Origin: Chiloscyllium plagiosum
Taxonomy: Eukaryota
DNA: 64,000 nt
Direction of reading: 5' to 3'
NCBI RefSeq assembly: GCF_004010195.1
Contig: NC_057719.1
Coordinates: forward strand, 25,320,809-25,384,808
Shown piece after piece: positions 1-64,000 of the stretch (positions are counted from its first letter, which is position 1; each line of letters opens with the position of its first letter). Both the position numbers and the translations under genes were made by a program. The notes beneath the pieces are model-generated. The model did no database searches, was not told the origin of the DNA, and saw only the letters and a list, made by a program, of their open reading frames with translations.

Positions 1-479
1 GAATAAGTTTTTAATTAATTTGTTTGAAGATGCTAAAAGGTAAAGTGAACACGGTTTATTTGGTCAGGAACTTGGATCTCCAACCCACTTGATTCCCAAT
101 GTGTTAGCAAATTAGCTTCCTGCCTCTGGGCCTTTTTCACTAGTGAATGTTTTGTGGGGAGAAGTTTGCAGTGGTGGATACTCACTCAAGCAGCAGATAG
201 ACTTAAGTCAATTAAACAGCCAATTGAAACCACTCTTTTGGTTCTGATAGCTTTATGGGATGCCTGCAGAGTTTGAAGCCTGGCTGATCAATGGATGCCA
301 TATCCTGGCAGCAAACCAAAGATCAGTGCTTTATTACTAATGTTAAATCTTCTCCCCCCCCCCCACTGAAATAACTCTACAGAGGTCAGTATCTCATCAC
401 CAAGTCACCCTTTCGTTACACAGAGTCCTTGACACTGATTCAAGCTCTGAGTGAACAGAATCTCTGACACTTCTGTTTT

Positions 480-1700
480 ATTATATATATTTTATTAAAA
501 CACTACAAAATACAGTTAATAAACAAAGCAGTTCACAAAAAAAATATACAGGGGAAAAGGCAACAAAGCCAAATGTCACTCTTCAACCAGTTTTCAGGGA
601 GAGGAGGACACACCTCAAATCTCACTTGTAAATCATTACAAAGATAACAACAATAACAGTCACAGACAAGACAGACAGTGCATAGAACACAGACCCAATA
701 TAGCTATAGAAAAGAAGACATTTGTCATCTGTCCACACCACACACAGATCAGATGCCTTGGCCCCAACCACCCTGCATACTAACCCAGACCATCCCCCCA
801 GGCCAACCATCAACCCTCCGGCTCCTGACTGCTCAATGTACTAACTAGCCCACTCTGACCTGCACTCAATTACAAAACCCACATACATTAATACAATTCT
901 TAAAATCCTCACAACAGTTTCCAGTACCAAGGCAGAGACCACACCTGAAGACAGAGTCTATTCCAACTAGCAGCAAATGGATACCCTGCAGTGCGCACCC
1001 AGGTGTTCAGTCTCGATGGAGGCCTGATCCATCCATAGAGAACCAAGCCCACTCACAGGAACACAGTACATTGTGAAGCTGCAGTTAACTCACAGGAGTT
1101 TGGTCCACTCCTGAAGGCAGAGTCCACACCACACACACTCAGGTGTTCAGTCTCCACAGAGGCCAGGTCCATTCACAGGAACATGGTACATTGTAAACGC
1201 ACAGTTAATTCACTTGGGGGATAGTCCACTCCTGGATGCAAAGTCCACTTCAGTATGCAGCAATTGCTCACCTCCCAGCACGCACACAGGTGTTCAGTCT
1301 TTACAGAGGCCTAACCATACAGGAACAGCACATCTGGAAAGATGTATTTTCTCACGAGGGCTCAATCCAAACACAAATGAGAAAACATTAAAAAAAAAAC
1401 CTGAGTGCAAGAGCTAAGCCCTGCCACAAAATCAACATACTCTTGAGAAAGGACCAACACACAGCCAGTGAAACAGCAGTTCCCCAATAAGAAATGAGTT
1501 ACGCCAGTAACACATTGACTGACTGACTTTTTTAAACTGGCTGATTTAAACAAAGAGGAATGCCAGTTAACAAACTGGTGATATGATTCAGCCAGTTCAG
1601 AAATCATGTTTTCCCCAAAACAAACAGAAACCAACAGTAGCAGTATGCATTTGATGTGGGCAGCCAGCTCAGAGTCAGTTCCCTCACTGAGGCAAATGGA
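480..1700 (-). mobile_element. Non-coding poly(A)-tailed retroposon 'X', copy 1, inserted in the Gypsy LTR
   Basis: AATAAA plus A-rich tail at the low-coordinate end; internal subrepeats (CAGGTGTTCAGTCT at about 1000, 1140, 1288); homologous to 1867-3036. Confidence 0.6.
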
Positions 1701-1866
1701 GTGTCATTGACACTGATCCAGCTCTGAGAACAGAACCTCTGACACTCCTATTTATTGTTTTTCCCCTGTCACCAAATCACCCTTTATTTACATGTGCACA
1801 TAGACTATCTCTGACCAGCCCAGCTCCAAGCCAATCCCTAGAATGATGAGACTGAATCCCCTGTGT

Positions 1867-3036
1867 ATTTTATTAAACATTACAGTTTATAAACAATTAA
1901 CATTAACAGCTGTATAGAGCAATCAAGGACAAGGAGGCTCAAATCCCACTTTCAGTTTCACAAACGTAACAGTAACAAATACATACAAGACATTCCAATT
2001 AGATAAGAAACAGTGCATAGAATACAGACATCCCCCCTCCCCATCCCCCACCTGAGCAACTCAGCAAGCCACCTGTCCCTCTCACCTTCCAGCCACTCTA
2101 AGGCAGCCTGCCCCATGCCCCATCTGGCTCTCTCCCACCCTAACAACTTGCAGCCACCTCAAGGACAGCCCACCCCGGTATCTGCCAGGGGGTGACAGCA
2201 GTGAGGATGGTCTACCTACCTTTCAGCGCTCTGTCTGTCCCTACATACCATCTGGCTCTCGCCCACCCTGACCTGCCATCCAGCCTGTGAACTGCTTTGA
2301 CACACCTGGCCACCTTGAAGATAGCCCATTCCCTTCCCTGAGATGACGGCGTGCAGAGCCCATTACCATAAACAGTTCTCTTCAAAATGCAGAGTCCATT
2401 CCAGTGTGCAGAATGCATTGTCAGAGATAGAGTGCATTGATGAAGGCTGCAAATACAGACACACAGGTGTTCCTTCTCCATAGAGGCCTGGTTTGTCCAC
2501 AGAAAACCAGGCCTACTCACAAGAACACAGTACATTGGGAGTGAACCACACCTTTACAAATTCCAAGACACAGCAATTGGTCAGCTCCCATCACACACAG
2601 GTGTTCAGTCTTTACAGAGGCCTACCCACAGGAACAGCTCATCTGGAAAGAGGTATTTTCTAACAAGGGCACAGTCCAAACACCAAAAAAGTGAAAACAC
2701 ATTCAAAAAACAAAGTAAACCAAAATGCAAGGGCTAAACCCGCCAGAAAATTAGCATAGTCCTCTTCTCAAAATAAAAAACAAAAGACTAACACACAGGC
2801 TGTAACAACAGTTCCCTAATGAGGGCTGAATTATACCTGAAACACATTGACTGTGTAAATCAGGCAGTTTAGAAATCAGTCCTCAATAAAGAAGGAATAC
2901 CAGTTAACAACCCTGGCTTTGTAAACCAGCCAGTTTAGAAATCCGGTTCTCCCAAAAAAGCAGAAACCAACAGCAGCAGTAACACACTGACTGTGACCCA
3001 GCCAGCGTAGAGTCAGTCCCCTCCCTGACACAAAAT
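1867..3036 (-). mobile_element. Non-coding poly(A)-tailed retroposon 'X', copy 2
   Basis: Same 5' junction and 3' end as copy 1; 2593-3036 aligns clearly with 1283-1700; middle region differs. Confidence 0.6.
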
Positions 3037-3111
3037 AGAGAGTCCTGGACACTGATTCAACTCCCTTAGAGCCAGCTCTCAGATTGAACAGAACCTCTGA
3101 CACTCCTGTTT

Positions 3112-3583
3112 ATTTTAGATTTTTGTTTCTATTTCCCACATGCTACTGCCTAACAGTATTTATTTTACCCCACCACCCATGTTGTGTGTGTGCAGATGTA
3201 GGGCACTGTGAAGACCAACAAATGCATACATCCTTACTTGTATTCCACCACCAGGAAGAAAGGAAATGCCCAAGTGGCCAGTGACTAGTAGTGCCCTTCT
3301 CAACAAATGGCAATGCTGCGTGATCAAAAAGTGAAGGGGGGGGCGGGGTGGATTAAATCAAAATAGAGTTGGACGGGGAAATAAGACACTCCACTCCCTA
3401 CGGTGCCCACCTCTCCCTGAACAGCTCAAGGGTGTTGGTAGATACTGCATGCTCCTTCTCCAGAGACACCCAGGCTCTGATATAACCGCGGAAGAGGGGT
3501 AGGCAGTCAGCCCTAACGACCCCCTCCATGGCCCGCTGCCTGGTCCTGTTTATGGCCAGTTTGGCCAGGCCCAGGAGCAGACA
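3112..3583 (-). mobile_element. Tx1-clade (L1 group) LINE, 3' fragment: ORF2 C-terminus plus 3' UTR and tail
   Basis: LLLGLAKLAINRTRQRAMEG...LFRGYIRAWVSLEKEHAVSTNTLELFRERWAP is typical of Tx1 ORF2 ends; AATAAA and A-rich tail follow. Confidence 0.8.
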
Positions 3584-3826
3584 CACACTTGTTTTTTTTT
3601 AATCAACTCACCCTTGAGTTACATGTGTAGAATCCTTAGCACTGATCCAGTTCCCTCAGAGCCAGCTCTCAGAGTGAAAAGGATGTCTGTCACCCCTGTT
3701 TATCATTTTTTTTCTCTTTCTGTCTTCACACTGATCCAACTCCCTCAGAGCCAGCTCTCAGGGTGAACAGGATGTCTGACTTTTTTTTCTCTTTTTCTCA
3801 GAGTGACAGGATTCTGACACTCCTGT

Positions 3827-4050
3827 TTTTTTTTTGTTTTTCTTCTTTTCCCCTCACACCACCAGCTAACTGCGGTAGCACTTATATTTTCCCCAGCATC
3901 CATGTTGTGTGTGTGCAAGTGTGGGGCACAGTGAAAGACTCAAGGTGTACAAATATTTATTCAATTTCCATTACCGGGAAGAACTAAAACACCCGAGTGA
4001 CCAGTGACAAGCAGTGCCCTTCACAAAGGGCAATGCTGCGTGATCAGACC
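3827..4050 (-). mobile_element. Second Tx1 3' UTR fragment
   Basis: Diverged homolog of 3125-3330; A-rich tail joins the same LTR site. Confidence 0.75.
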
Positions 4051-4084
4051 ATTGGATGAGAGATGATATGGAGCTGTCCTTATA

Positions 4085-4340
4085 TGATGAATACCTCTCA
4101 ACTTTCCCATCTATCCGCTCCACCACACTCTCCGACCTATCACCTTCTCCCCCATCTTCATCTATAATTGCATTCTCAGCTACCATCCCACCCCCCAGGC
4201 CGAACACCTTCCCATTTATCTCTCAGCCCCTCGGCCCACAAGCATCATTCCTAATGAAGGGCTTATGCCTGAAACATCGATTCTCCTGTTCCTCAGATGC
4301 TGCCTGGTCTGCTGTGCTTTTCCAGCACCGCACTGTCAAC
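4085..4340 (+). mobile_element. Penelope-like element 3' tail with degenerate hammerhead (CTAATGA..GAAAC)
   Basis: CCTAATGAAGGGCTTATGCCTGAAACATCGATTCTCCTG...GATGCTGCCTG tail shared with 16250, 40740 and 55600. Confidence 0.8.
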
Positions 4341-7300
4341 TTTAGGAAATACTCAGATTCTCCATTAGTAAATGATAACCCATTATCTGTGACCAATGCT
4401 TTCAAGAGTCCATGTATTGCAAAAGCTGAACGCAGTTTTTCTATCATGGCTCCCGTGTTTGAGGAATGAATGCGATACATGTCTACCCACTTTGAGGGGC
4501 ATCCACAATGAGCCCATGAAACGATTTGCAAAGTTGTCGTGTAATCCGGCTGTTCTCAAGATTAGGGGGAGCTGCTGGTGATAGTTTTGCCCTTGTTGGC
4601 ACTCTGGACACTACCCGCCAATGTGGCTATGTCTGCATCTAATCCTGACCAGACATGAAGTCTCCCCAACTCTTCATTTTGAAAACGCTTGGATGACCCT
4701 GGTGGAGTTCACACAGTATCTGGTGGTGACCTTTGCTTGGGACAATCACTCTTGCTCCCCCATAATAATGGTTGTGATGGCTCTTTTGGTTTCCCCCATC
4801 ACCACTGCCAGCTGTTTCGTCAGGATGAGATCTTTCTGCATCCAAAGTCTGAAATTGTCAGCAGCGATTGGAAGTGTGTCCAGGAAATTTAAAACTATTA
4901 CGGACTCTTCCAGTGGTGGTACCACTGGTGGTGTATCGGCCAGTGGGAGGCAGCTCAATGCACCCTCGTTCACTACTTGCCATCCTGGACTGTGTTCCAA
5001 CTTGCAATTATACCCAGTTAGTATTAGAGCCCACTGCTGAATTCAAATTAAAGCAATTGCTGGCACTGCTTTGTTGTCTTTAAGGAGCCCTACCAGGGGT
5101 TATTACAAATTTACATCAGTAAAGGTATTGGTGGAACTTTCTGACTTCAAATATTACAGCCAAACCTTCCATCTCTAACTGGGCGTATTTACACTCTGCA
5201 TGAGCCAAAGTCCTGGATGCATATGCTATTTGGCATTCCTCCCTACTAGGCCAGCTATGAGCTAATACTATCCTGATGCCATATGGGGACATAGTGCATG
5301 TCAATACTAGATCTCACTTGGGATCTTAGTGTGTCAGCGCATTTAAAGGATGATAGTCATTTTTTCACTTCCCTGAAAGCTATGGCTTGGCTACGCAACC
5401 ATTTCCAAGGCTGACCCTTGTTTAGGAGTTGATGGAAAGGAGCCAGGATGGAACCAGGTTATGTATGACCTTACTGTAATAATCCACCAGCTCAAGGAAA
5501 GTCCTGAGCTCCGGTACAGACTTGGGAGCTGGGGCACCTTTGATCATCATCACTTTATCTTCCAATGGGTGTAACCCTGTTGACTCTGCAGCCCAAGTAG
5601 GTCTCTGGGGTACCTTGAACACATACCTTTTCCTTTCTAAGGCATACACCTGCCTGGGAGAAACATCTCAGCATAAAGTCCAAATTCTCTAAGTGCTCAT
5701 CATTGGCCTTCCCTGCTATTAGCACATCATCTATATAAATAGCGGCCTGGGGTAGACATTGTAAAATATTCTCCATCGTCCATTGAAAACTTGCACAAGC
5801 TGATGATACCCAATTGGCAATCTTGTATATTGGTACAAACCCTTATCGGTATTTAATTGTAGCGTAATTCTGGAAATTCTCATCTAACTGTAATTGCAGG
5901 TACATGTGACTCATGTCCAGTTTCATGAATGACATCCCTCCCTAAAAAAAAAGCTGATTTTGTGTATAGGTCCTCTCTGTGAGGGATTGGGTCTTTATCC
6001 AGTTGTACAAAACTGTTTACCATTTGCTTAAAATCCCCACAAAGCCAAATAGGCCCCTCACGCTTCACCATCGGTACCATTGGTGCTGCCCATTCTGCAA
6101 ACTGGATTGGTTTGATGATTTCTTCACTCTCCAGCCTTCTGATTTCTGCCTCTACTTAAGCAAATGGCCCTGGGCGGGCTTTGCAGAATCATGGAATTAC
6201 TTCCTGGTCAACAGGTAAGGTTACCTTGGCTCCTTTGATAGTCCCTAGACTTTCCTGAAAAGCTGCCTGATATTTAATTAGGACTTCACTCAGGCAGCCA
6301 TTTTCTGAACGAGAAATGTTGAGCTAATCAAGGTGAATCTTTCTCAACTAACTTCGCTCCATCAGGCTTGGGTCTGAACCTTTTAGTACAATCAACGGTT
6401 ACTGAACCAGCTGCTGTTCATAAGAGATGGGAACCAAAGTTGTACCCTTAATCTGTAAAGGTACCCCAGTATAGGTTCTCAGTCTAGCAAAGTCTTGCAC
6501 AAACTTAAGGGTTGGAGTCCAGAATGAATTTTGTTTAAGAACAGAATTGCAATCAATGAAACAGTTGCAATGGTATTGACCTTCAATAGAACTGGGTGAC
6601 CATTTAACCAGACGTTTATTTCGATTGGTTCTGATTTGGATGTTGCTCAGTAATTTAACTGATCCAAACCAGATGTAGGTGGGTGTGCCCTCTCCTAGAT
6701 ACTGGCCTCTGCATTGTCTTAGTCAATTTAGGTCGAGTGAAACTCAGTCGGACTGGCAAGGGTATTCACTTCCATCAGAATACCCTGCAACTCATATGCT
6801 ACATTTGCCGGATTTTCCAATAACAAAGCTAATTCTTGTTTGAACTTCAGTTGGACTTCACCTAGTGGGTGCTTTTGAATGGTTACATTATTAATCCCAC
6901 ATACAAATGGTCTCTCAGCATTTCATTTAGGGTTAAACTAAAGTCACATGCCTCTGCCAGTCATCTTAACAAAATCAAAAAATCAAAATTCCTGTACGAT
7001 TCCATGGTTCTCGAATTGCCAAGTAATCTGATAGCCTCTCAGAATTTGAGGAGGCTTGGGGTCGTAATATTCCTGAACAAAATCTGTCAACTCTTGAAAG
7101 GTTTTTGTATCTTGTGCCTTCGGGAAAGATAGACTCTGGAAAAGTTGTGGGATTATCATTAGCTGTCAGGAGAATTACTCGTTGCTTTTCATCTGCCCCA
7201 CTCATTAAAAATAACACACTCTTTCCACATACTGGGCCCAGTCTTTGATGACAGGGTCGAAAAAGGCAAACTTTCAAAATACTGGCATGATGTCAGAAAT

Positions 7301-9039
7301 GGTTACTCCAACTCAAAGACGACCATTATGAGCAAATTTCTTCAGGAGGGTGCTTTTCTCTCATCACCACTGAAGTAACTCCAGAGAGGCCAGTATCCTG
7401 TCACCAAGTCACCCTTCATTTAGATAGAGAGAGTCCTTGAGACTGATCCAGCTTTCTCAGAGCTGCCTCTCAGAATGAACAGCATATCTGACACTCCAGC
7501 CTTTTTTTCTTTTTTTTCCCCCTTGATTTACGTGTCCCAAGTAGGTAGGCTCTGACCAGGCAACTCAAAGCCAGTGACAGTCCTGCTCTTATCAGTCAGC
7601 TAGGGCTCCTTGATTGGGGCTGTTAATCAGTTCCAGTCAGGGAACTCATTCTGAGGTCCACCTGGCTGATCTCATCACAATCCATACATCCACAAACCAC
7701 TGGCCACAGGTAGCCCCGCATAAGGGCGGTCTGTATCGGTGGCTACTTTTTTATTTTGAATGCATTTCTGAAGGAGCCTTCATCTTGAGATGCCCTCACT
7801 TTCTCTTCCCTTCATCAACAATTCCTTACTGACAATTTTGGGTGGGAATCTTTCCTTGATGGAAGTTTCCTTTTGGCCCTCAGAAGCCCACTGCAGTTCT
7901 AATTTGGAGAGTAACCTCCCCTTTTTTATCTACTATTTAGTACAAAATCTGGACATGGAAGTGCTCCTGATGTCAGAGTCTGAACCCAAAGACAAAAATT
8001 CAGCCAACTGTCTTTGAATTGCTGCAATGCTTAATTGGTTCAACCAATCAATAATCTTTATCAATCATACTCTCCAGACCTCAATTCCAGAAATTACCTT
8101 AATTTCAGCAGTAAAGCTCCTGAATTAAAACTGGCTGCAAATTAAAACATTCATTGTACAGGGCCTTTCACAAGCTCAAAGTATGTCAAAGAATTTTACA
8201 GCTATTTTAGCACTTTTGAAATATATTTACTGTTGTAGGAATAAATTGTTTTATCCTAAAATTTGTACCTGGTTCTCTTGCTTGTGCAGGCAAGATTGGA
8301 ATCAGATATGCTTGACTAATCCAGTAATTACTACATGGGTAATTCTGCAAACCACACACCAGGCTCCTGAGAAGACAAAATTTCACATTTATTGTTAGTA
8401 TTTAATATCTTTATTAAGAGGCACAAGTGAATAATCTTGCAAGTCACATAACTTGAAGAATCAGCAAAATGAGCTGAGCAATGGCCAAAGTCCCGGAGCA
8501 AGAATATACTGTGTGGTGTATCTTTGAACCACTATTCAATGTGTGATTGCAGGAGGATACAGAATATATGAAAGCAGAGGGTTGAAAATGAGGGGTAAAA
8601 CTATAAGAATACCTCCTCCACAATGGTCCATTCCTCAAATTGATGGCATTATCAAATCAAGAAAAAGAAGTTACAGGCTGTTCCAATCCCTGGCTTTAAA
8701 TATAATGCCGATAAATAGAAAGGATAAGTATATCAAAAAAGCTGAAGATAAAACCAAAATTATTTAACTTCAATATTTTATTTCAAACTTTGGATTCATT
8801 TGGGTCCCATTCATTTATAAATTGCATTGACGTATTATTCCAATTTTAATTGTAACATGGTCGTATAGCATGTATTTCAGTTGCCCTAAGGATCATTCTT
8901 TGCAATGTAAAGGACCTTTTTATATCTCTTTTGTATTCATCCGTGTAAACTAATCTTGAGTGTCAGTCACTGGGCATGACTGGACGACAACCAGTTTGGG
9001 GTGATGGGATGCTTTGTTTGCCAACTTACTCTTCAAAGA

Positions 9040-13649: not shown

Positions 13650-14400
13650 GTTCATTTCCCAGGGTGTGGGCTGGGCCAGCATTTATGGTCCATCACTAAT
13701 TGTCTTACAGAAGGTGGTGGGAAGCTGTCTCCATGCTGCAGTCCTTGGGGTAGAAGGCCAACCGCACTGCTGCTAGGAAGAGAGTTCCAGGGTTATCACC
13801 TTCACCAGTGCAGGAATAATGATATAGTTCCAAGTCAGATGGTGTCTGAATTGGAGGGGTGTTTGCAAGTGGTGAAATTCCCAGGTGTCTGCTGCTCTTG
13901 CTATTTTAGATGGAAAAAGCTTCCGTTTTTGGAAAGTATTGTTGAAGGAACCTGGTCGAATTGCTGCAATGCATCTTGTGGATGAGACAATCTGTTGCCA
14001 CTGTACATTGATGGTGCATGGGCTGCCAGTCAAACAGACTGCTTTGGTCTGGATGGGCATCAGGTTCCTTGAGTTGTTGGAACTATACTAATTCCAAGCA
14101 AGTGGAGTGTATTCCATCGCACTCCAAACTTGTGCTTGTGGACAGGCTTTGAGGATTTGAGTGATGATTTACTCCCCACAGAATCCCTAATCTTTGACCA
14201 TCTCTTGCAGCCACAGTATTTAAGTGGTTAGTTCAGTTCAGTTTCTAGTTAATGATAACTCTTAGGATATTGATAACAAGTAAGACAGTGGTGGTAATGC
14301 CATTGAATGTAAACAGGAAATGGTTGGATTCTCTCTTGTTAGCGATGGCAATTGCGTAGCAGGAATGTTACATCCCAAGCCTGAATGTGGTCTTGGTCTT
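13650..14400 (-). mobile_element. CR1/L2-group LINE 3' fragment (family also at 30745-31430 minus, 38690-38780, and 40450-41520 plus)
   Basis: KAQV.S.MEY.PLAW-type RT C-terminus and shared 3' tail. Confidence 0.7.
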
Positions 14401-20704: not shown

Positions 20705-22118
20705 GTTCAGTTGGCTAGATGGCTGAGTAAGATGCAGATTTATACTAACAGCCCTGTTAAAATCATCATAATGCCTGTGGTAGTTTATGCACACCGGCCT
20801 CCTTATCCTACATCACCCTTGCAGTATAGTACAATCTGTACATAACTAATTATATCTCTCTAATGAAGATAGTTGGATTATGGCTATTTAACTTTCCTTA
20901 TGTTAAAGACAATGTACAAATGTAAGTTGTTATTGATAAATATTACAGCTTAGGAGGCCACCAACAAGTGACCTCCATTATCAGTTTCATCTGAGAACTA
21001 ACGAAAATCTTTGGTGCCTCCATATAGTATTCATCCCATGATTCCATTTGTCTTTATCAGGTCTTTATTAGTCTTCCATAACTTATGACTCGTTTCGCTT
21101 GAACAAAATTTACTAATCTCAGTAATAATTTATCTTCTAGTCCACTGGTAATGTTGTGATCTTTGGTGAAAGATAAGAATTTCACATTGTTTCAACTTAA
21201 CATGGAGGGTCTTGGATATTAAGAATCAGTGACAAGAGGAAGGGTTCAGTAAGCCTCCACAGGTAAACTCAAATAAATTGAGAAGATTAACACTAACGCA
21301 TTGGTTGTGTTTATGCTCTACTTCCTCCTCTAAACTACAACACTGTTCTAACTCTCTGATCACCCATACCTTCACTCTTTGGTATTCAATACTGTAACTT
21401 TTGACTTCTTACACTTATCACTGGCTGCTTAACCCTGCTGCACTAAAAAGCTGAATAAATCTTGACAGTGTCATGTCAACCCCATGCAATACTCTGGATT
21501 ATCTACTGGTCATAGTAAAATATCTGAGGACACTTATTTCTTGTAATACCTTTCCCTAACACACTTTGACAGTCCCACTCTTTTTATGAAACACCAGTCC
21601 CCATTTTGGGAATGAATTATAGAGATCACATCTGCAATCCATTATAGACTCATGATTTTCATTAATCAGAGATTACTAAATTCACAACCAGGAACAATGT
21701 CAAATGAGCCCTGCTAATAAAGATCTGGACAGATGGAAAGGTTTTGCATTGGATCAGAATGTAGGCGGAAGTGGGTACTGTAGCTGCTGGAGATTAGAGT
21801 CAAGATTAGAGTGGTGCTGGAAAAGCACAGCAAGTCAGGCAGCTACTAGATCACAATATGTCATGCTCCAAAGCTTCAAAGATAGGCCTTGCCTCATTTT
21901 TCTGACCTTGATGACCTGACTGCTCCCAAGTACAGGTGCTCGTCATTTACAATGTGTTGAAAAATCTACAGAAGTGCATCCCTCCCATTCCCAAAGGAAG
22001 TCTTTGGACTCTGGCTTACAAAGCAAACCTTGCCAGAGATAACAGCACCTTAGCAGTTCGCCAGCATTCAGAAGTACCACAGTAGATCAATTTAAAGGAA
22101 ACATAAAATGAAACAAAC

Positions 22119-23053
22119 CTCATTTTTCCTATTGGCACTCCCTTCTTCTTCTTTCTCCTTCTTATTTTCATCTTCAATTCTTTTTCGCACTGGGTATGAT
22201 GAAATGGTTTCCTTCCCTTTTTGTCTGATATCTTCCCCAGAGTGAGATCTTCTGTTGCCCCATGAGTGTTGGAAATGACTCGGTTCATTGTGTGCTTTGG
22301 CACTTCCAGATCCTGCAAGTTTACCGTTTCCCTCGAAGAGATCTTGTTTTTCATCACTTGTTTCTCCATGGTTTTGTTCTGGGCTCAGTTCCCCTGTCAT
22401 CTTCCACTTTTTTCTCTCCTGCAGCTCTTCTTTCGATGATCCATAATTTTCATCACTGATGTTTGAGTCTTCATCCTCTTCTCTACCTTCATCCTCTGAA
22501 TTCTGGTGGATCATGGTATTGTCATTGGACCTTATTTCTTCCTCAGAGGATGTCCCATCCATCTTCATGTCCGAAGGCTCACTGTTTTCAGGTTGGTTTC
22601 TGCTTTCTTCCATGTTTCTTCCATCCCCTCCATCATCTTCTGAAGGCTCTTCATCCTTACTGTCACTGTAATCACTGTGGTTTTCCACCTCATCCTCTTC
22701 ATTGCTCTCTTTGGTTTGGTCTTCATCCATTTCCTCTTCCTGGGTATCCCCATCTTCATTTGGCTCACTTTCCTCTGGACTATGCTCCTCACTTTGGCTC
22801 TGATCCTGGGACTGTTCTACAGTAGACTCAATTTCAGAGTTGCCATGCTTCCTTGGCTCCTGTCTTTTTATGTCTTCCTTTTCTGGGGCCATATTGCTGC
22901 TAAATGGAGTTGTATCCTTCATGTTCAGAAAGCTGTGCCTGCTTACATTTGGTGGTGTCTCCTCTTTGCTGTCCTGAAACTCTTTGTCCTTCATTCTGAA
23001 TATCTCACCAGATGATCCTTGCTGTTTCTCTGTAGGGATCTCATGTAATTTAC
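22119..23053 (-). CDS. CHGA: Chromogranin A coding exon 6 (large acidic exon, ends EEEGSANRKNE)
   Basis: 935 nt open frame containing most of ORF 22092..22994; CTGCAG acceptor and GAG|GTTTGT donor; Glu/Ser/Asp-rich; EEEGSANR is a CgA hallmark. Confidence 0.93.
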
Positions 23054-23556
23054 CTGCAGAACAATCAATATGATAGATGAACTTTCACGAAGTCAATTGG
23101 ACTAATTGCTTTTGCTCAGTTGCTATGATAACACTCAAGGACAAACATATCTTGTCCAAAAACAAAAATTCCGACGGGGATCAAAAACAGACAGAAGCTG
23201 CTGGTATGTCATTTCATGAGTAATGTTCAATTAACACTACTTAAACTATATTTAAATGATGACAGAAAGCAATTTATGTAAAATATCTGTAAATAGATAG
23301 ATCTGACTAATCAATATCAACACTCCTTCTATGCAATGTATTCTATTTTAAACAGTCTCTGTTATACTCAGTAGTCTGATATGGTAAATTAGAAATGCTG
23401 TAACATGCAATTAGATTCTGGCAATGCATCACAAATATAATTTAGCCAATTAAAGTACTTTAAGCAAAACGATGCTCTGCAACTGAATAATTATCTGGAT
23501 TACATTGACAGTCTGCAATGTACACCAGGGATTTGGTGGTTTACCTCAACACTAAC

Positions 23557-27379: not shown

Positions 27380-27620
27380 AACTGAAAAAACTGTGGATGC
27401 TGTAAATCAGAAATGACAATAGAAATTGCTGGGAAAGCTCAGGCAGTCTGGTAGCATCTGTGAAGAGAAATCAGAGTTAATATTTTAGGTCCAGTGACCT
27501 TTTCTAGGAACTCAGAATTCTGAGGAAGGATCGCTGGACTTGAAATATTAGCTCTGATTTCTGTCCACAGATGCTGCCAGACCTGCTGAGCTTTTCCAGC
27601 AATTTCTGTTGTTGTTTCTG
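27380..27620. mobile_element. Penelope-like fold-back insertion (same family as 20474)
   Basis: Inverted arms around a degenerate CTGAGGAAGG..GAAAT core. Confidence 0.8.
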
Positions 27621-28959
27621 AGTTACTAGAGATCCTGTCAATAGTAGAATCTTACCCCAGGAAGGAAGGAAAAAGGAAGAAGCCAGAGAGAATTTTAAAA
27701 TAAGTTTCTGGATAAAACATTCATTCTGTTTTAAAACAATCTTTTATTTTATCTGTTGCTTATACTAATGCAGTATTTATAACTGCTGATTAAGCAGCAA
27801 AGTAGTCAAATGTCAGCAGTTTTTACAAAGTTGGGGCAGTAGCAGAAACTGGTTCCAATGGACATACTTATTCAGTTGGAACCTTGAATATTGTGCAAAA
27901 TGCAAAATACAGCAGCTGCCTGAAACCTGAACCATAACATGCTGGAAATTTTCAACAGTTTAAGCACTGGTCAGAGTCAAGGACCATATCTAGAACAGTT
28001 TCTCCATTCTCCCCAATCTGACAATTCACTAATAGAGTTTGACCTAGTCATGGAAAAGTAGAAACACAATTGAGTTTATGTTTGATTATCAGGGTGCCAT
28101 TTCTAATTTTGCAAAGGATTAGGAATTGGATCCATGGTGAAATAAGTATTAGCTAATGATATTAACAGTTTTTTCAAAAGTTGAGACCTCTGCAGTAAGA
28201 CATGAATTCAGCAGATAGGATGTCAGGAATGTGAACTGTGTATGTCATCACTCAAACACAACTATACTTGGCCTGCAGAGACCAGATATGTGCCTTTCGT
28301 TGGCTACTCAAAATCTTAGTAACTAACCTTGTAGTTAAAATGTATTAATACTCATTCTCGATATTACCGAAGTGGGTGACACTGAAGTTCGTTGCAAGCA
28401 GCAGGTCAACTGACATCCAAGCAGGCACACTGATAACTACTGAACATGTGAGATATGGACAATGAGTTGCAATAGAATTAAAAACAATAGAAACCAGATG
28501 CCAGAATAAATAAAATAAGAAAGGATTAATTTGTAACCATTAGTAAAATTGACGTCAGTTCAAATGGGTTGGAATTTTCCACATGCATTAAGAATGAGGG
28601 AACAATTTTGGAAACAATAACGAATGGAAGCAAAAATATAAACTGGAACAACTACAGTTGAAAACCAATATCATATAGAAAAAAAAATACAGATCATGTT
28701 TGAAAATATATCTCATAATCCAGAGACTACGGTATCATTGATTATTTTTCAGGCTAATTGCTTGCTTTTCTGCAAAATTGCAGGATAAACTTGTGAAATG
28801 TCTGCACTTCCAGATGGTTATGTGATATCACTGCCTCAATATAGTAATCTTGCATAAAAAACACATGGAGGCAGTCAAAATGCCTGGTTCTTTCAAGAGC
28901 TGAACAATAACAAAGACTTGCTACAAAAGGAACACTTGCTTCAAAATGGTTGGTGAGAA

Positions 28960-49796: not shown

Positions 49797-50027
49797 TGAA
49801 ATAACTGCACATGGGCTAGAATGCTGTCACTCAGTCACCATTTATTTACATGTGCACAGTACATGGGCTCTGACCAGCTAACTTAGAACCACTCCCTAGA
49901 CTGTGTAGACCTTCTGAAGCCTGTTTATATCTGTCAGCCAAGGCTCTCTAATTAGCCCAGGTTAACAACCCCAATCCAGGATCTTATAGTCAATGTGATC
50001 CACCTGGCAATGATTCCAATCACTACA
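49797..50027 (-). mobile_element. Uninterrupted solo LTR related to the Gypsy at 367-7688
   Basis: TGAAATAACT...CAATCACTACA; minus-strand ATATAAA and AATAAA; aligns with 7371-7688 and 1765-1866. No clear TSD. Confidence 0.8.
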
Positions 50028-50241
50028 TCAACAATTTTGAGAAATCTAGACAATTTACATGCACTCTCTTATTTATTTACTAGCAAAAGCAGATGCTTAA
50101 AAACATTCTTTCTTTTGCAATATAACTCTGACCTCCTGACCTAAAGTCAATCTTTAGGACTGTCAGCCAGTCTTTCAGTGCGGTGCACCTGTGTGGTCTG
50201 GAACCTACATATCCTAAAACACAGAGCCCTGCTGTTCGTAG

Positions 50242-55540: not shown

Positions 55541-55759
55541 GAAATCAAGATTAGAATGGTGCTGGAAATGCACAGCAGGTCAGACAGCATTCGAGGAGCA
55601 GGAAATTCAACGTTTTGGGCAGCAGCCCTTCATCAGGAATGGCTCCTGTCCGAAACGTCGATTTTCCTGCTCCTCGGATGCTGCCTGACCTGCTGTGCGT
55701 TTCCAGCACCATTCTAATCTTGACTGTAATCTCCAGCATCTGCAGTCCTCACTTTCGCC
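55541..55759. mobile_element. Penelope-like fold-back insertion inside a SINE
   Basis: Inverted arms; TSD CTCTTAATTC (55531-55540 / 55760-55769); minus-strand hammerhead with GAAA mutated to AAAA. Confidence 0.88.
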
Positions 55760-58680: not shown

Positions 58681-58998
58681 GGTTTGTGAAGGTTTGTAGC
58701 TCAGGTTGAGGTTTAGGGTGTAGATTTGCTCGTTGAGCTGCAGGTTTGATATCCAGACGTTTCATTACCTGGCTAGGTAACATCATCAGTGGCGACCTCC
58801 AAGTGAAGCGAAGCTGTTGTCTCCTGCTTTCTATTTATATCTTTCTCCTGGATGGGATTCCTGGGGTTTGTGGTGATGTCATTTCCTGGAACAACAGCTT
58901 CGCTTCACTTGGAGGTCGCCACTGATGATGTTACCTAGCCAGGTAATGAAACGTCTGGATATCAAACCTACAGCTCAGCGAGCAAACCTACACCCTAA
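58681..58998. mobile_element. Young Penelope-like fold-back with two intact hammerhead motifs
   Basis: Arms of about 110 bp (58712-58820 / 58890-58999), nearly identical; 20-bp TSD (18/20) at 58661-58680 / 58999-59018. Confidence 0.9.
58919..58958 (+). ncRNA. Minimal hammerhead ribozyme motif (identical inverted copy at 58753-58792)
   Basis: CCA-CTGATGA-T-GTTACCT-AGCC-AGGTAAT-GAAAC-GTC-TGG. Confidence 0.75.
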
Positions 58999-59744
58999 AT
59001 CTGAGATCATTCTTGTAAACATCCTCTGGACCCCCTCCAAGGCCAACTCATCCTTCCTTACAAAAGGAGTCCAAAACTGCTCACAAATTCCAAATATGGT
59101 CAGACCAAAGCCTTATACAGCCTCAGCAGTACATTACTACTCTTGTATTCCAACTCTCTTAAAATGAATGCTAACATTTCATTTGCCTTCCTGACTGCCA
59201 ACTGAACCTGCATGTTAACCTTAACAGAATCGTGAACTGTGGACTCCTAAGTCCCTCTGTGCTTCAGATTTCCAGAGTCTTACCTGATTTAGAAAATAGC
59301 CTAAGCCTCTGTCTTCCTACCAAAGTGGATAACCTCACACTTCCACACATTGTATTCCATCTGCACTTCTTTGCCCACTCACCTAGCCTGTCCAAGTCTT
59401 TCTGCAGCCTTCCTGGTTTCTCAACACTACCTGTCCCGCCACCTATTTTATGTCATCTGCAAACTTAGCAACAATGCCCTCAGTTCCTTTGTTCAGATCA
59501 TTAATGTATACCATTAATAATTGTGGTCCCATCACTGACCCCTGTGAAACTCCGCTACTCACTGGCTACCATTCTGAAAAATACCCCTTTGTCCCTACTC
59601 TCTGCCAGTCAGCCAATCCTCTATCCAGCGCCATGGACTCTTACCTTATTTAGCATCTTACTTGTTTGATGGTTCTTCTCAACAGTGTACCTTGTGTTGT
59701 CCCAGTTGTTGAAGTAGAACTTTACAATATGCGGCAAACCATGC

Positions 59745-61835: not shown

Positions 61836-62528
61836 AGCGTGTTTTGAGAAGATTTATAGCTCAAGTTGAGGTTCTGGATGTAGGTTTGCTCACTGAGCTG
61901 GAAGATTCATTTCCAGACGTTTTGTCACCCTACTAGGTAACATCTTCAGTGGGCCCCCAGGCGAAGTACTGTTGATAGTTCCATGTCATTTCATGTGGTG
62001 ACTTCATTTCCTTTTTCTCAGGGGGTGATAGATGTGGTCTAACTTGATGTGTATGTTGATGGAATTCCGATTGGAATGCCATTCCTCTAGAAGTTCTCAT
62101 GCATGTCTCTGTTTGGCTTGTCCTAGGATGGATGTTTTGTCCCATTTCAAGTGGTGTCCTTCCTTATCTGTATGTAAGGATACTAGTGAGACACCACTTT
62201 GACTAGGACAACACATCCATCCTAGGACAAGCCAGAGACACGTATGAGAATTCCTAGAAGCATGACATTCCAACCAGAACTCTATCAACAAACACATTGA
62301 GGTAGACCCCAACTACCACCCCTGAGAAAAAGAACAGGAAATGACATCACCATATGAAATGATGTCACACATGAAATGACATCACCAATCCAAAGAAAAC
62401 CAAATATATAAACAGAAAGCAGGAATTATTAACAGTGCTTCGCCCGGAGGCCCACTGAAGATGTCGCCTAGTAGGGTGACGAAATATCTGGAAATGAACC
62501 TTCCAGCTCAACAAGCAAACCTACATCC
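61836..62528. mobile_element. Penelope-like near-complete palindrome (693 bp) with endonuclease C-terminus and decayed hammerheads in both arms
   Basis: Perfect 12-bp TSD AGATTAGTCCCT (61824-61835 / 62529-62540); WDKTSILGQAKQRHA..EFLEA.HSNQNSINKHIE remnants. Confidence 0.9.
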
Positions 62529-64000
62529 AGATTAGTCCCTTTGAATTTCTTCAAGACTGTGTGGTATATTAAGCCCATTTCTTTCACTAACCATGTATAG
62601 TCCACAGTCCTGCATTCTCCAGAATGTTAATCTAACATTGTGACCCTACTAGGTTGATTTTCGCAGGTAATATTCTCACAGCCTCTGTTGGATGGGACCA
62701 TAGTCTTTCAAAGGATAACTCAGTGTCTGACTTAACCTTCTAGTCTTCAACTGTCTTCTGAATCAGTCATTTGGGCAACAAAGTAGCACTGTCAACTGTT
62801 ATAGAAGCTTAATTTGTTCATTATAATGATAAATGCTGAACATGTAATTATCTTGTGGTGCAGTGGTAGTGTCTGTCCCTTAAGGACAGAAGATCTGGGT
62901 TGCAGTCACATCTTTTCCAGAGGTGCCTGAACAGGTTATTTTGTTTTAATTATCGCCATTAGTTGGAGCTACAATGAAATAATTAGTAGTAATGTAATAA
63001 ATAAACAAATAGCTAAAATAAAAGATAATAATGCTTGATTCAGTGAAGGATAGTTGGAACTAGGCAGCTCTTACAAATAATTATTAATAATTTAATAGTA
63101 ATGGTATAGAAAGTATAACTGACCCATCAGTCTATTGGGGAGAATGGAAAAAAATAGCCAGTACTGCCCCTGATTAAACCATGCAAACAGCTAAAAATGG
63201 TGGCAGCATAACCCACAATTTTAATCTATTCTAGTGAAACCACTTTAAAAGATTACAGAGCCATTCTATTTGTGGTGTCAATCATGGATTAAGAAACACT
63301 ATCATTCATTTCTTTAATAATTCAAAACTAGGTTCAGATTAGAATTTACTGATGTGTAAACTCAAAGCCAAGTTTGATTCTAAAATCATGAAATCATGAA
63401 ATGGGGGAAAATCAACCGCTGTATAATTTACAAACCCCTTTACAGAACAGCGAATTTTCTTTGGGAGGGGAGTTCTTTTAAAACCAAATCAATTTAGCTC
63501 TACTTTTAGTGAGGGTTATGTACAATCTATTGCTATTTGAAAAGTATCTAACTCAACAGGGACATAATTAAGTTGATGGCTAGTTTTTGGAGTTATTTCA
63601 CATGTGGTACTTTTTGCACAGTACACACAATGGATATAATGTCAACACATTGTAACAGGGCACAGTGTTGCACCCATTTATGACAACACTTAGTATTGCT
63701 TGTTGCTGGCGAATACTCTTGAGATTAAGGATACAATTGAGGTACTCCCTTGTGAGAGCCCAGGGCATTGACTACCTGCATTAACTGACTACAGCTGTTC
63801 CCTTGTGAAACAAATAACTTTCTTGCATGGTCAGGTGATCCATCACACACAAAAAAATGGCTTCAATAATAAACAAAAGCCTATATTATGAAAAACTGCA
63901 CGCACATAGAAATAAGGAATGATTAATATCAACAGCAAACAGGAAATGAAGGCAGATCAGCAAAGAGTTGCTGTTCCTACAAATATTTTCTCCTCATTCT

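Follow-up and report, generated by a model that had tools for sequence, protein, structure and literature searches.

The window (the whole stretch of DNA analysed here, 64,000 nucleotides) holds at positions 7679-367, on the minus strand, a decayed LTR retrotransposon whose downstream LTR lacks U3 and is filled with A-tailed inserts. Two of these inserts are copies of the sequence referred to below as element X. The features of the locus, in the order in which the minus strand is read, are as follows.

7371..7679, minus strand: 5' LTR, carrying an insert at its own TATA site
4400..7330, minus strand: decayed gag-pol of the target LTR retrotransposon (Pfam RVT_1, RT_RNaseH_2, RT_RNaseH), with many stops and frameshifts
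3826..4046, minus strand: second copy of the LINE 3' UTR, with an A tail at the TATA site (3077-3326 vs 3796-4046, 73.6%)
3600..3825, minus strand: three short LTR pieces, each with an A tail, the middle one ending close to the X start point
3109..3590, minus strand: 5'-truncated LINE tail (the last ~62 codons, 3' UTR and an A tail at the same TATA site)
3038..3108, minus strand: LTR piece before X1 (71 nt), starting directly behind the TATA site, comprising U3 spacer and ~47 nt of R, and ending just upstream of the LTR poly(A) signal
1864..3037, minus strand: element X copy 1 (X1), with a conserved 5' part of ~480 nt, two subrepeat units, a G-rich middle and an AT-rich 3' end
2460..2636, minus strand: X1 subrepeats, two units (core motif at 2598, variant at 2464)
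1751..1863, minus strand: piece of a second LTR subfamily with its own A tail (a 99-nt piece running from TATA to poly(A) site, behind X1)
1699..1750, minus strand: LTR piece before X2 (52 nt), the same span as before X1 minus a 16-19-nt deletion
476..1698, minus strand: element X copy 2 (X2), with the conserved 5' part, three subrepeat units and a middle unlike that of X1
996..1325, minus strand: X2 subrepeats, three units (core motif at 1000, 1140 and 1287)
367..475, minus strand: 3' flank of X2, made up of TATA spacer, R and U5 of the targeted LTR (its downstream half)

The retrotransposon at 4400..7330 is one that we take to be Gypsy. The stack in its downstream LTR reads, on the minus strand, LINE 3' UTR, three LTR pieces, LINE tail, X1, a foreign LTR piece, X2 and the R-U5 half. 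Every tail in this stack ends at the TATA site, the X and LINE tails share one orientation, and insertion at the LINE's site holds for 2 of the 2 X copies in the window. The LINE whose tails are stacked there is presumably Tx1-like. Its 62 C-terminal codons have no Pfam or PDB match and no convincing match in the Atlas; the LINE fragment adjoining X matches shark gene predictions, one of them from Hemiscyllium ocellatum (5 of 20 candidates were scored). The insert in the 5' LTR (7503-7585), in which ~11-14 nt of target are followed by R-like sequence from a third LTR subfamily and then by an A tail, is probably the retrocopied end of an LTR transcript. At the missing integrase end and downstream U3 lies a short repeat (4246-4334), presumably a Penelope-like repeat unit, with relatives at 16.2, 21.8, 40.7 and 55.6 kb.

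X1 and X2 (1173 and 1219 nt) are homologous, as the original prediction had it in speaking of two diverged copies. Together with their LTR pieces they align at 71.9% over 555 columns (blastn, 1258-1756 vs 2571-3114, E 1.8e-75), and over the 5' part specific to X they are identical at 337 of 434 aligned positions (78% over the first ~480 nt). Beyond this conserved part identity drops to 69/117 and then to 156/349. The two copies begin at the same point, within 1-2 nt, and the motif TCAG(T/G)GAGGG..ACTGACTCT directly follows the LTR piece in both. CpG is depleted in both copies (0.15 and 0.12). No third copy is detected by blastn in the 64-kb window.

The middles of X1 and X2 cannot be aligned (score 30, against a shuffle maximum of 36.5), and the 3' ends are weakly similar over ~110 nt (score 56.5; 300 shuffles gave a mean of 30.8 and a maximum of 57.0). 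That the middles differ had been read as favoring independent insertions, and this reading is borne out: their alignment does not exceed that of shuffled sequence, and each middle is separately repeated in the genome. Each copy has a single AATAAA, at its 3' end (1874 in X1, 496 in X2). The proposal that both copies end in AATAAA and an A-rich tail at the LTR site is correct in full for the polyadenylation signal, and in part for the rest: X2 has an A-rich tail, but X1 has only a very short A tail, with another LTR subfamily behind it.

The subrepeat motif is exact at 1000, 1140, 1287 and 2598, with spacings of 140, 147 and (to the variant at 2464) 134. Motif and spacing thus agree with the ~140 bp first described, but the motif as first given is that of the antisense strand. 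The subrepeats give little sign of a conserved RNA structure: on the sense strand a z of -2 was reached by just 1 of the 5 units. An 11-bp hairpin is present in homologous subrepeat units on the minus strand (~2483-2513 in X1 and ~1019-1049 in X2). Five of its 11 pairs differ between X1 and X2; the sense strand keeps all of them paired (four through G-U, one by a compensatory change), and four of those pairs break on the antisense strand, in a comparison of two sequences only. The hairpin is missing or reduced in the remaining three subrepeat units. A stretch of ~26 nt is inverted between X1 (2856-2884) and X2 (~1520-1548) and creates a local inverted repeat in X2.

X gives no coding signal. 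The longest stop-free frames of the two copies (113 and 111 codons) are matched or exceeded by 38% and 34% of 300 shuffles, and 2 of 13 indels between the copies are multiples of three. No Pfam family is found in the six sense frames of the X copies (antisense frames were examined by length only); one sense frame of X2 has 0 matches among 1.84 billion proteins, and for one of X1 none of 75 candidates scored in a comparison with shorter proteins only. The statement that X has no credible ORF therefore holds for frame lengths, which are those of shuffled sequence, and for the sense frames searched. A protein-like frame in the subrepeat was considered as a sign of coding origin and rejected: the spacings of 140 and 134 break the frame, a stop recurs and none of the 11 candidates scored. 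Searches of metagenome, viral and prokaryote collections, in which shark DNA is not expected, gave 0 matches to subrepeat or LTR-site patterns.

The absence of a tRNA head is likewise upheld, by a tRNA search that finds no tRNA in X and by the lack of any Rfam match at E<=1 in window positions 1-8000, which also means no match to a U1 or U2 snRNA head. Stretches of at least four T number 12 in one copy and 11 in the other, and matches to the A and B boxes are scattered, have one mismatch and are not common to both copies. Pol III transcription of X is unlikely because of these T runs and the lack of a tRNA head. X is also not a classical SINE: it has no tRNA, 5S or 7SL head, carries internal T runs, and at 1173/1219 nt is well beyond the usual length of less than about 500 bp. 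With respect to a self-cleaving ribozyme, Rfam gives no match, and a simple descriptor scan yields no hammerhead core and a single loop-like 7-mer, which lacks a closing stem. X does have what is expected of a passenger, namely no coding capacity and a multicopy distribution with a poly(A)-type 3' end.

The abundance of X was gauged from reads of 4 of 24 runs mapped at 80% likeness (single-copy contigs have a depth of ~8 in the reference run). Summed depth is not copy number, and the single-copy equivalents that follow are to be taken as orders of magnitude only. They come to ~310-370 for the X 5' parts, ~300-440 for the 3' parts and ~650 for the X2 subrepeats, with ~79 for the middle of X1 and ~17 for that of X2; single-position depths peak at 13,659 and 18,190. 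Since both middles are repeated elsewhere, they point to separate subfamilies and independent insertions. The depth profile over X is similar in a second organism. X is thus a multicopy family in both organisms, its size being of the order of hundreds of single-copy equivalents, if not more. It is a real family that has probably gone undescribed so far; a literature search, with Repbase and Dfam outside its scope, returned no description of such a shark element.

For comparison, the LINE coding end amounts to ~33,000 equivalents and falls to ~6,300 over the LINE 3' UTR, and the LTR pieces amount to ~1,700. LINE ends are therefore ~20-fold more numerous than LTR pieces, so that the LINE may have targets other than this LTR.

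The best reading, by analogy with known systems, is that X is a passenger of the TATA-targeting LINE, working like the crocodilian SINEU elements or the R2 SIDEs. Stated in full, X would be a group of retroposons of ~1.2 kb that are non-autonomous and poly(A)-tailed, share a defined 5' end, fall into several subfamilies and are copied in trans by that LINE, an account to which we give somewhat better than even credence. The common start (within 1-2 nt) of copies that are 78% alike and have unalignable middles argues for it, as does the fact that all tails in the stack end at the TATA site. There is also precedent (Kojima 2015, PMC4494074) for passengers that share the target of a Tx1 element and for Tx1 families that prefer LTR retrotransposons. 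Against it, X and the two neighboring LINE tails have no 3' sequence in common, and the genomic context can be read for two copies only. This last point also bounds the original prediction of a non-autonomous partner family at the LTR site, of which the multicopy, non-coding and poly(A)-tailed character and the independent insertions at the TATA site are corroborated, the last of these from the two copies read in context.

X could instead be the long 3' UTR of another LINE subfamily, both copies being 5'-truncated at a hot spot. A G-rich tract, an AT-rich end, AATAAA and an A tail are features of vertebrate LINE 3' UTRs, and X resembles them in this. LINE 3' UTRs at this locus are moreover subfamily-specific, as the fall in depth from ~33,000 to 6,300 equivalents indicates. 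Truncation does not readily account, however, for a start that coincides within 1-2 nt in two distant copies. Furthermore, conservation peaks at the 5' end of X, the depth does not rise toward the 3' end in the manner of truncated LINEs, and no joint between an X start and a LINE coding end is present among the 15 joints and 12 joint inserts listed (1388 and 466 more exist). We regard this origin as improbable.

An origin of X as an internally deleted derivative of an autonomous LINE, in which a subrepeat-bearing 5' UTR has been fused to a 3' UTR from another subfamily (an element of SIDE type or a bipartite one), is a stronger contender, to which we give somewhat less than even credence. It concerns where X came from and is compatible with its being a LINE passenger. 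The distribution of conservation (strong in the 5' part, weak in the 3' part, variable in the middle) suits such a derivation, and L1-clade 5' UTRs typically contain tandem subrepeats. The ratio of ~300-400 X 5' parts to ~33,000 LINE coding ends is the one to be expected if about 1% of LINE copies were full length. On the other hand, the 5' and 3' depths of X are similar, which leaves room for most 5' parts to be those of X itself; the sense-frame Pfam search and the comparison of three frames or part-frames with protein collections reveal no remnant of an ORF; and X has no similarity to the two LINE 3' UTRs in the window (z -0.6 to 1.1).

Each X copy has LTR sequence on both sides, as would the interior of a non-autonomous LTR element. 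The upstream pieces lack U5 and a primer site, however, and the downstream pieces lack U3; A tails are found at the 3' junctions and there is no match to the Gypsy interior in the window (z 1.4 and 0.5). A TRIM- or LARD-type element was rejected on the same features (no upstream U5, no downstream U3, A tails present). If X1 and X2 instead represented one old tandem duplication, their middles would not be expected to be unalignable and separately repeated in the genome. We consider this pair of explanations very improbable. The comparisons on which the original prediction had staked itself, to a LINE 3' UTR and to the LTR element's internal region, thus leave it standing within the window.

The LTR piece in front of each X copy is called the "head" below. 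Both heads break off at the same point before X, within 1-2 nt. Reads with loose ends at 3110/3113 indicate that in empty LTRs the sequence immediately upstream of the site contains a CCAAT motif and a TATA-like box. The distance from TATA box to initiator in Pol II promoters places the predicted start site: an initiator-like motif has its predicted initiator A 29 nt below the first T of the TATA box. The heads start ~23 nt upstream of this predicted start site, and that part of them is U3 by position. What had been described as ~50-75 nt of LTR R sequence fused to X at one point accordingly needs amending: the lengths (71 and 52 nt), the shared junction and the motif behind it are as described, but ~23 nt are U3 rather than R.

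Two origins of the head can be envisaged. It may be target DNA duplicated on insertion, or it may be the inherited head of an X RNA initiated at an LTR promoter. In the latter case LTR and X would have been fused once, or splicing would join them through a weak donor that just precedes the LTR poly(A) signal; at each insertion the cDNA end would anneal to the R region of the target and so regenerate a seamless junction. Inheritance, which we hold to be rather unlikely, would explain why the junction is identical in two distant subfamilies and why it falls just short of the LTR AATAAA, as escape from early polyadenylation requires; R2 SIDEs depend on cotranscription with their target (Eickbush and Eickbush 2012, PMC3414825). 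A head that starts ~23 nt above the predicted initiator cannot all derive from LTR-initiated RNA, however, and the poly(A) single-cell RNA run lists no peak of RNA starts or ends.

Nor is the junction a blurred one. The possibility that the first 28 nt of X are a mutated LTR poly(A) region was rejected (10 of 10 comparisons not significant, p 0.08-0.81); these nucleotides are not LTR-like, which counts against an inherited head and means that the LTR/X junction is sharp.

The X2 head also carries the deletion of its local flank: the 16-19-nt deletion is common to the X2 head and X2's own 3' flank, and is absent from the X1 head and the 5' LTR. This argues against inheritance. The deleted LTR form occurs elsewhere, however (mapped reads give six contigs at 1727), and so the deletion may be a subfamily trait. 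Pairwise identity among the LTR pieces does not discriminate duplication from inheritance: the X2 head matches its own 3' flank at 39 of 48 positions and the X1 head at 42 of 51, so that head and flank of X2 are not paired by base identity, a point against a long duplication.

The length of the duplication would also be unusual for this LINE enzyme, because in the second organism one LINE joint has only ~15 nt of target before a truncated LINE. (A short duplication as the LINE's usual product is at the same time a point in favor of the inherited head.) This LTR type has two copies of the motif AGTGTCA: the first lies close to where the short duplication ends, the second immediately ahead of the X junction. 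In the stack, the LTR piece at 3782-3721 runs only a few nt beyond its second AGTGTCA-like motif before passing into an A tail, and the second organism has a similar LTR form that stops a few bases past the second motif (depth 51.5). With the U3 part of the head, the deletion that X2 shares with its flank, and these A-tailed pieces ending near the second motif, the mixed evidence leans slightly to the LTR piece being at least partly duplicated target DNA, a long target duplication fitting as well as an inherited head.

The piece behind X1 is of a different LTR type from that preceding X1. It is 76.5% identical to a solo LTR near 49.8 kb (1766-1845 vs 49824-49903) and is cut at 1765, 18 nt below the LTR AATAAA, where intact LTRs continue into U5; 37 RNA reads with poly(T) are found at 1751. 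X1 probably carries it as a 3' transduction, derived from a donor copy of X that occupied the TATA site in an LTR of the second subfamily. Such an event would imply a third X insertion at a TATA site and read-through to an LTR poly(A) signal. The TATA site of the solo LTR of the second subfamily itself (~49800-50030) is uninterrupted.

Transcription of X was also looked for in RNA reads (a raw poly(A) single-cell library; the strand call assumes that the first mate is antisense to the RNA). Reads at the X 3' ends are sense-biased (for X2, 6-11 vs 0.1-0.3). Expressed per 1000 DNA depth, RNA comes to 1.3-3.8 for the X 3' ends, 2.5 for the LINE tail and 1.9-6.5 for the antisense strand over the subrepeats. 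X RNA per DNA depth is thus no higher than that of the LINE tail or of the antisense strand, which fits priming on genomic A tracts. The reads neither show nor exclude LTR-driven transcription, real X transcripts and A-tract priming not being separable in them.

Transposition of X as a LINE passenger can be pictured as follows. The LINE endonuclease would nick the T-rich strand at the LTR TATA box, and the poly(A) tail of the X RNA would prime reverse transcription at the nick (target-primed mobilization in trans). The second junction would form ~50-70 nt downstream, just past the second AGTGTCA and just before the LTR poly(A) signal. The LTR piece before X would then be largely duplicated target, and LTR sequence in a read-through RNA may guide its formation. 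On first entering an intact LTR, X would come to lie between a complete CCAAT-TATA-initiator promoter and the LTR poly(A) signal. For copies that keep U3, Pol II transcription from the rebuilt LTR promoter would be the likeliest route, and read-through to the LTR poly(A) signal would generate an extra LTR piece such as that behind X1. X1 and X2, with no U3 upstream, are probably dead.

A more ambitious version of this scheme makes X a promoter-less, three-way parasite. The LINE enzyme would land X at the LTR TATA box, and the long, motif-defined duplication would rebuild TATA box and initiator before X and move the LTR poly(A) signal behind it, so that each first insertion into an intact LTR became its own Pol II unit. 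We regard this as unlikely, and advance it as a conjecture.

Several known systems are instructive here. The crocodilian elements SINEU-1/2/3 are non-autonomous, are often found in tandem, and sit with Tx1-Mar at a Tx1-preferred site inside another transposon; T runs exclude their transcription by Pol III, they have no 3' tail in common with their partner, and transcription from the flanking target has been proposed (Kojima 2015, PMC4494074). The same source names Tx1-8_Crp and Tx1-4_AMi as crocodilian Tx1 families that prefer LTR retrotransposons. X is like SINEU, as there portrayed, in being non-autonomous, in lying, for the two copies read in context, at a LINE-preferred site of another transposon, in its T runs and in lacking a 3' tail shared with the two neighboring LINE tails. 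It is unlike SINEU in its size (~1.2 kb vs less than 500 bp), in having internal subrepeats and no snRNA head match, and in its location, an LTR TATA box, where 50-70 nt of target precede it.

Drosophila R2 and the R2/R1 SIDEs provide a second comparison. The SIDEs are demonstrated deletion derivatives in 28S rDNA that are cotranscribed with their target, have a 5' ribozyme and use the LINE enzyme in trans (PMC3414825). X would likewise be a non-autonomous, target-specific element that depends on target transcription and on the LINE enzyme in trans, but no ribozyme is found in X, and its target is the Pol II promoter of another transposon. SVA and Sadhu are LINE-moved non-coding retroposons of ~1-2 kb that are neither SINEs nor plain LINE derivatives, and SVA, which contains internal repeats, is able to draw on upstream promoters (PMC4494074). 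X is like these two in size and in being non-coding; neither is described there as target-specific, and the likeness is one of description.

How passengers of target-specific LINEs come to be transcribed without Pol III is a question left open for SINEU (PMC4494074), and an abundant family such as X, with its fixed junction within a recognizable Pol II promoter, would make it testable. X could also show whether one endonuclease makes two classes of target duplication, of ~15 and ~70 nt. If X were an ordinary deleted or truncated LINE, it would merely be a missing entry in shark repeat libraries.

Elsewhere in the window, the minus strand has an open frame of 330 codons (22092-23084), acidic and of low complexity, that has no Pfam match and is probably a large host exon, one that we presume to be SPARCL1/SCPP-like. 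Inverted repeats of 87-112 nt, 81-96% complementary, are present at 58709-59002, 61873-62531, 27402-27626 and 55545-55723.
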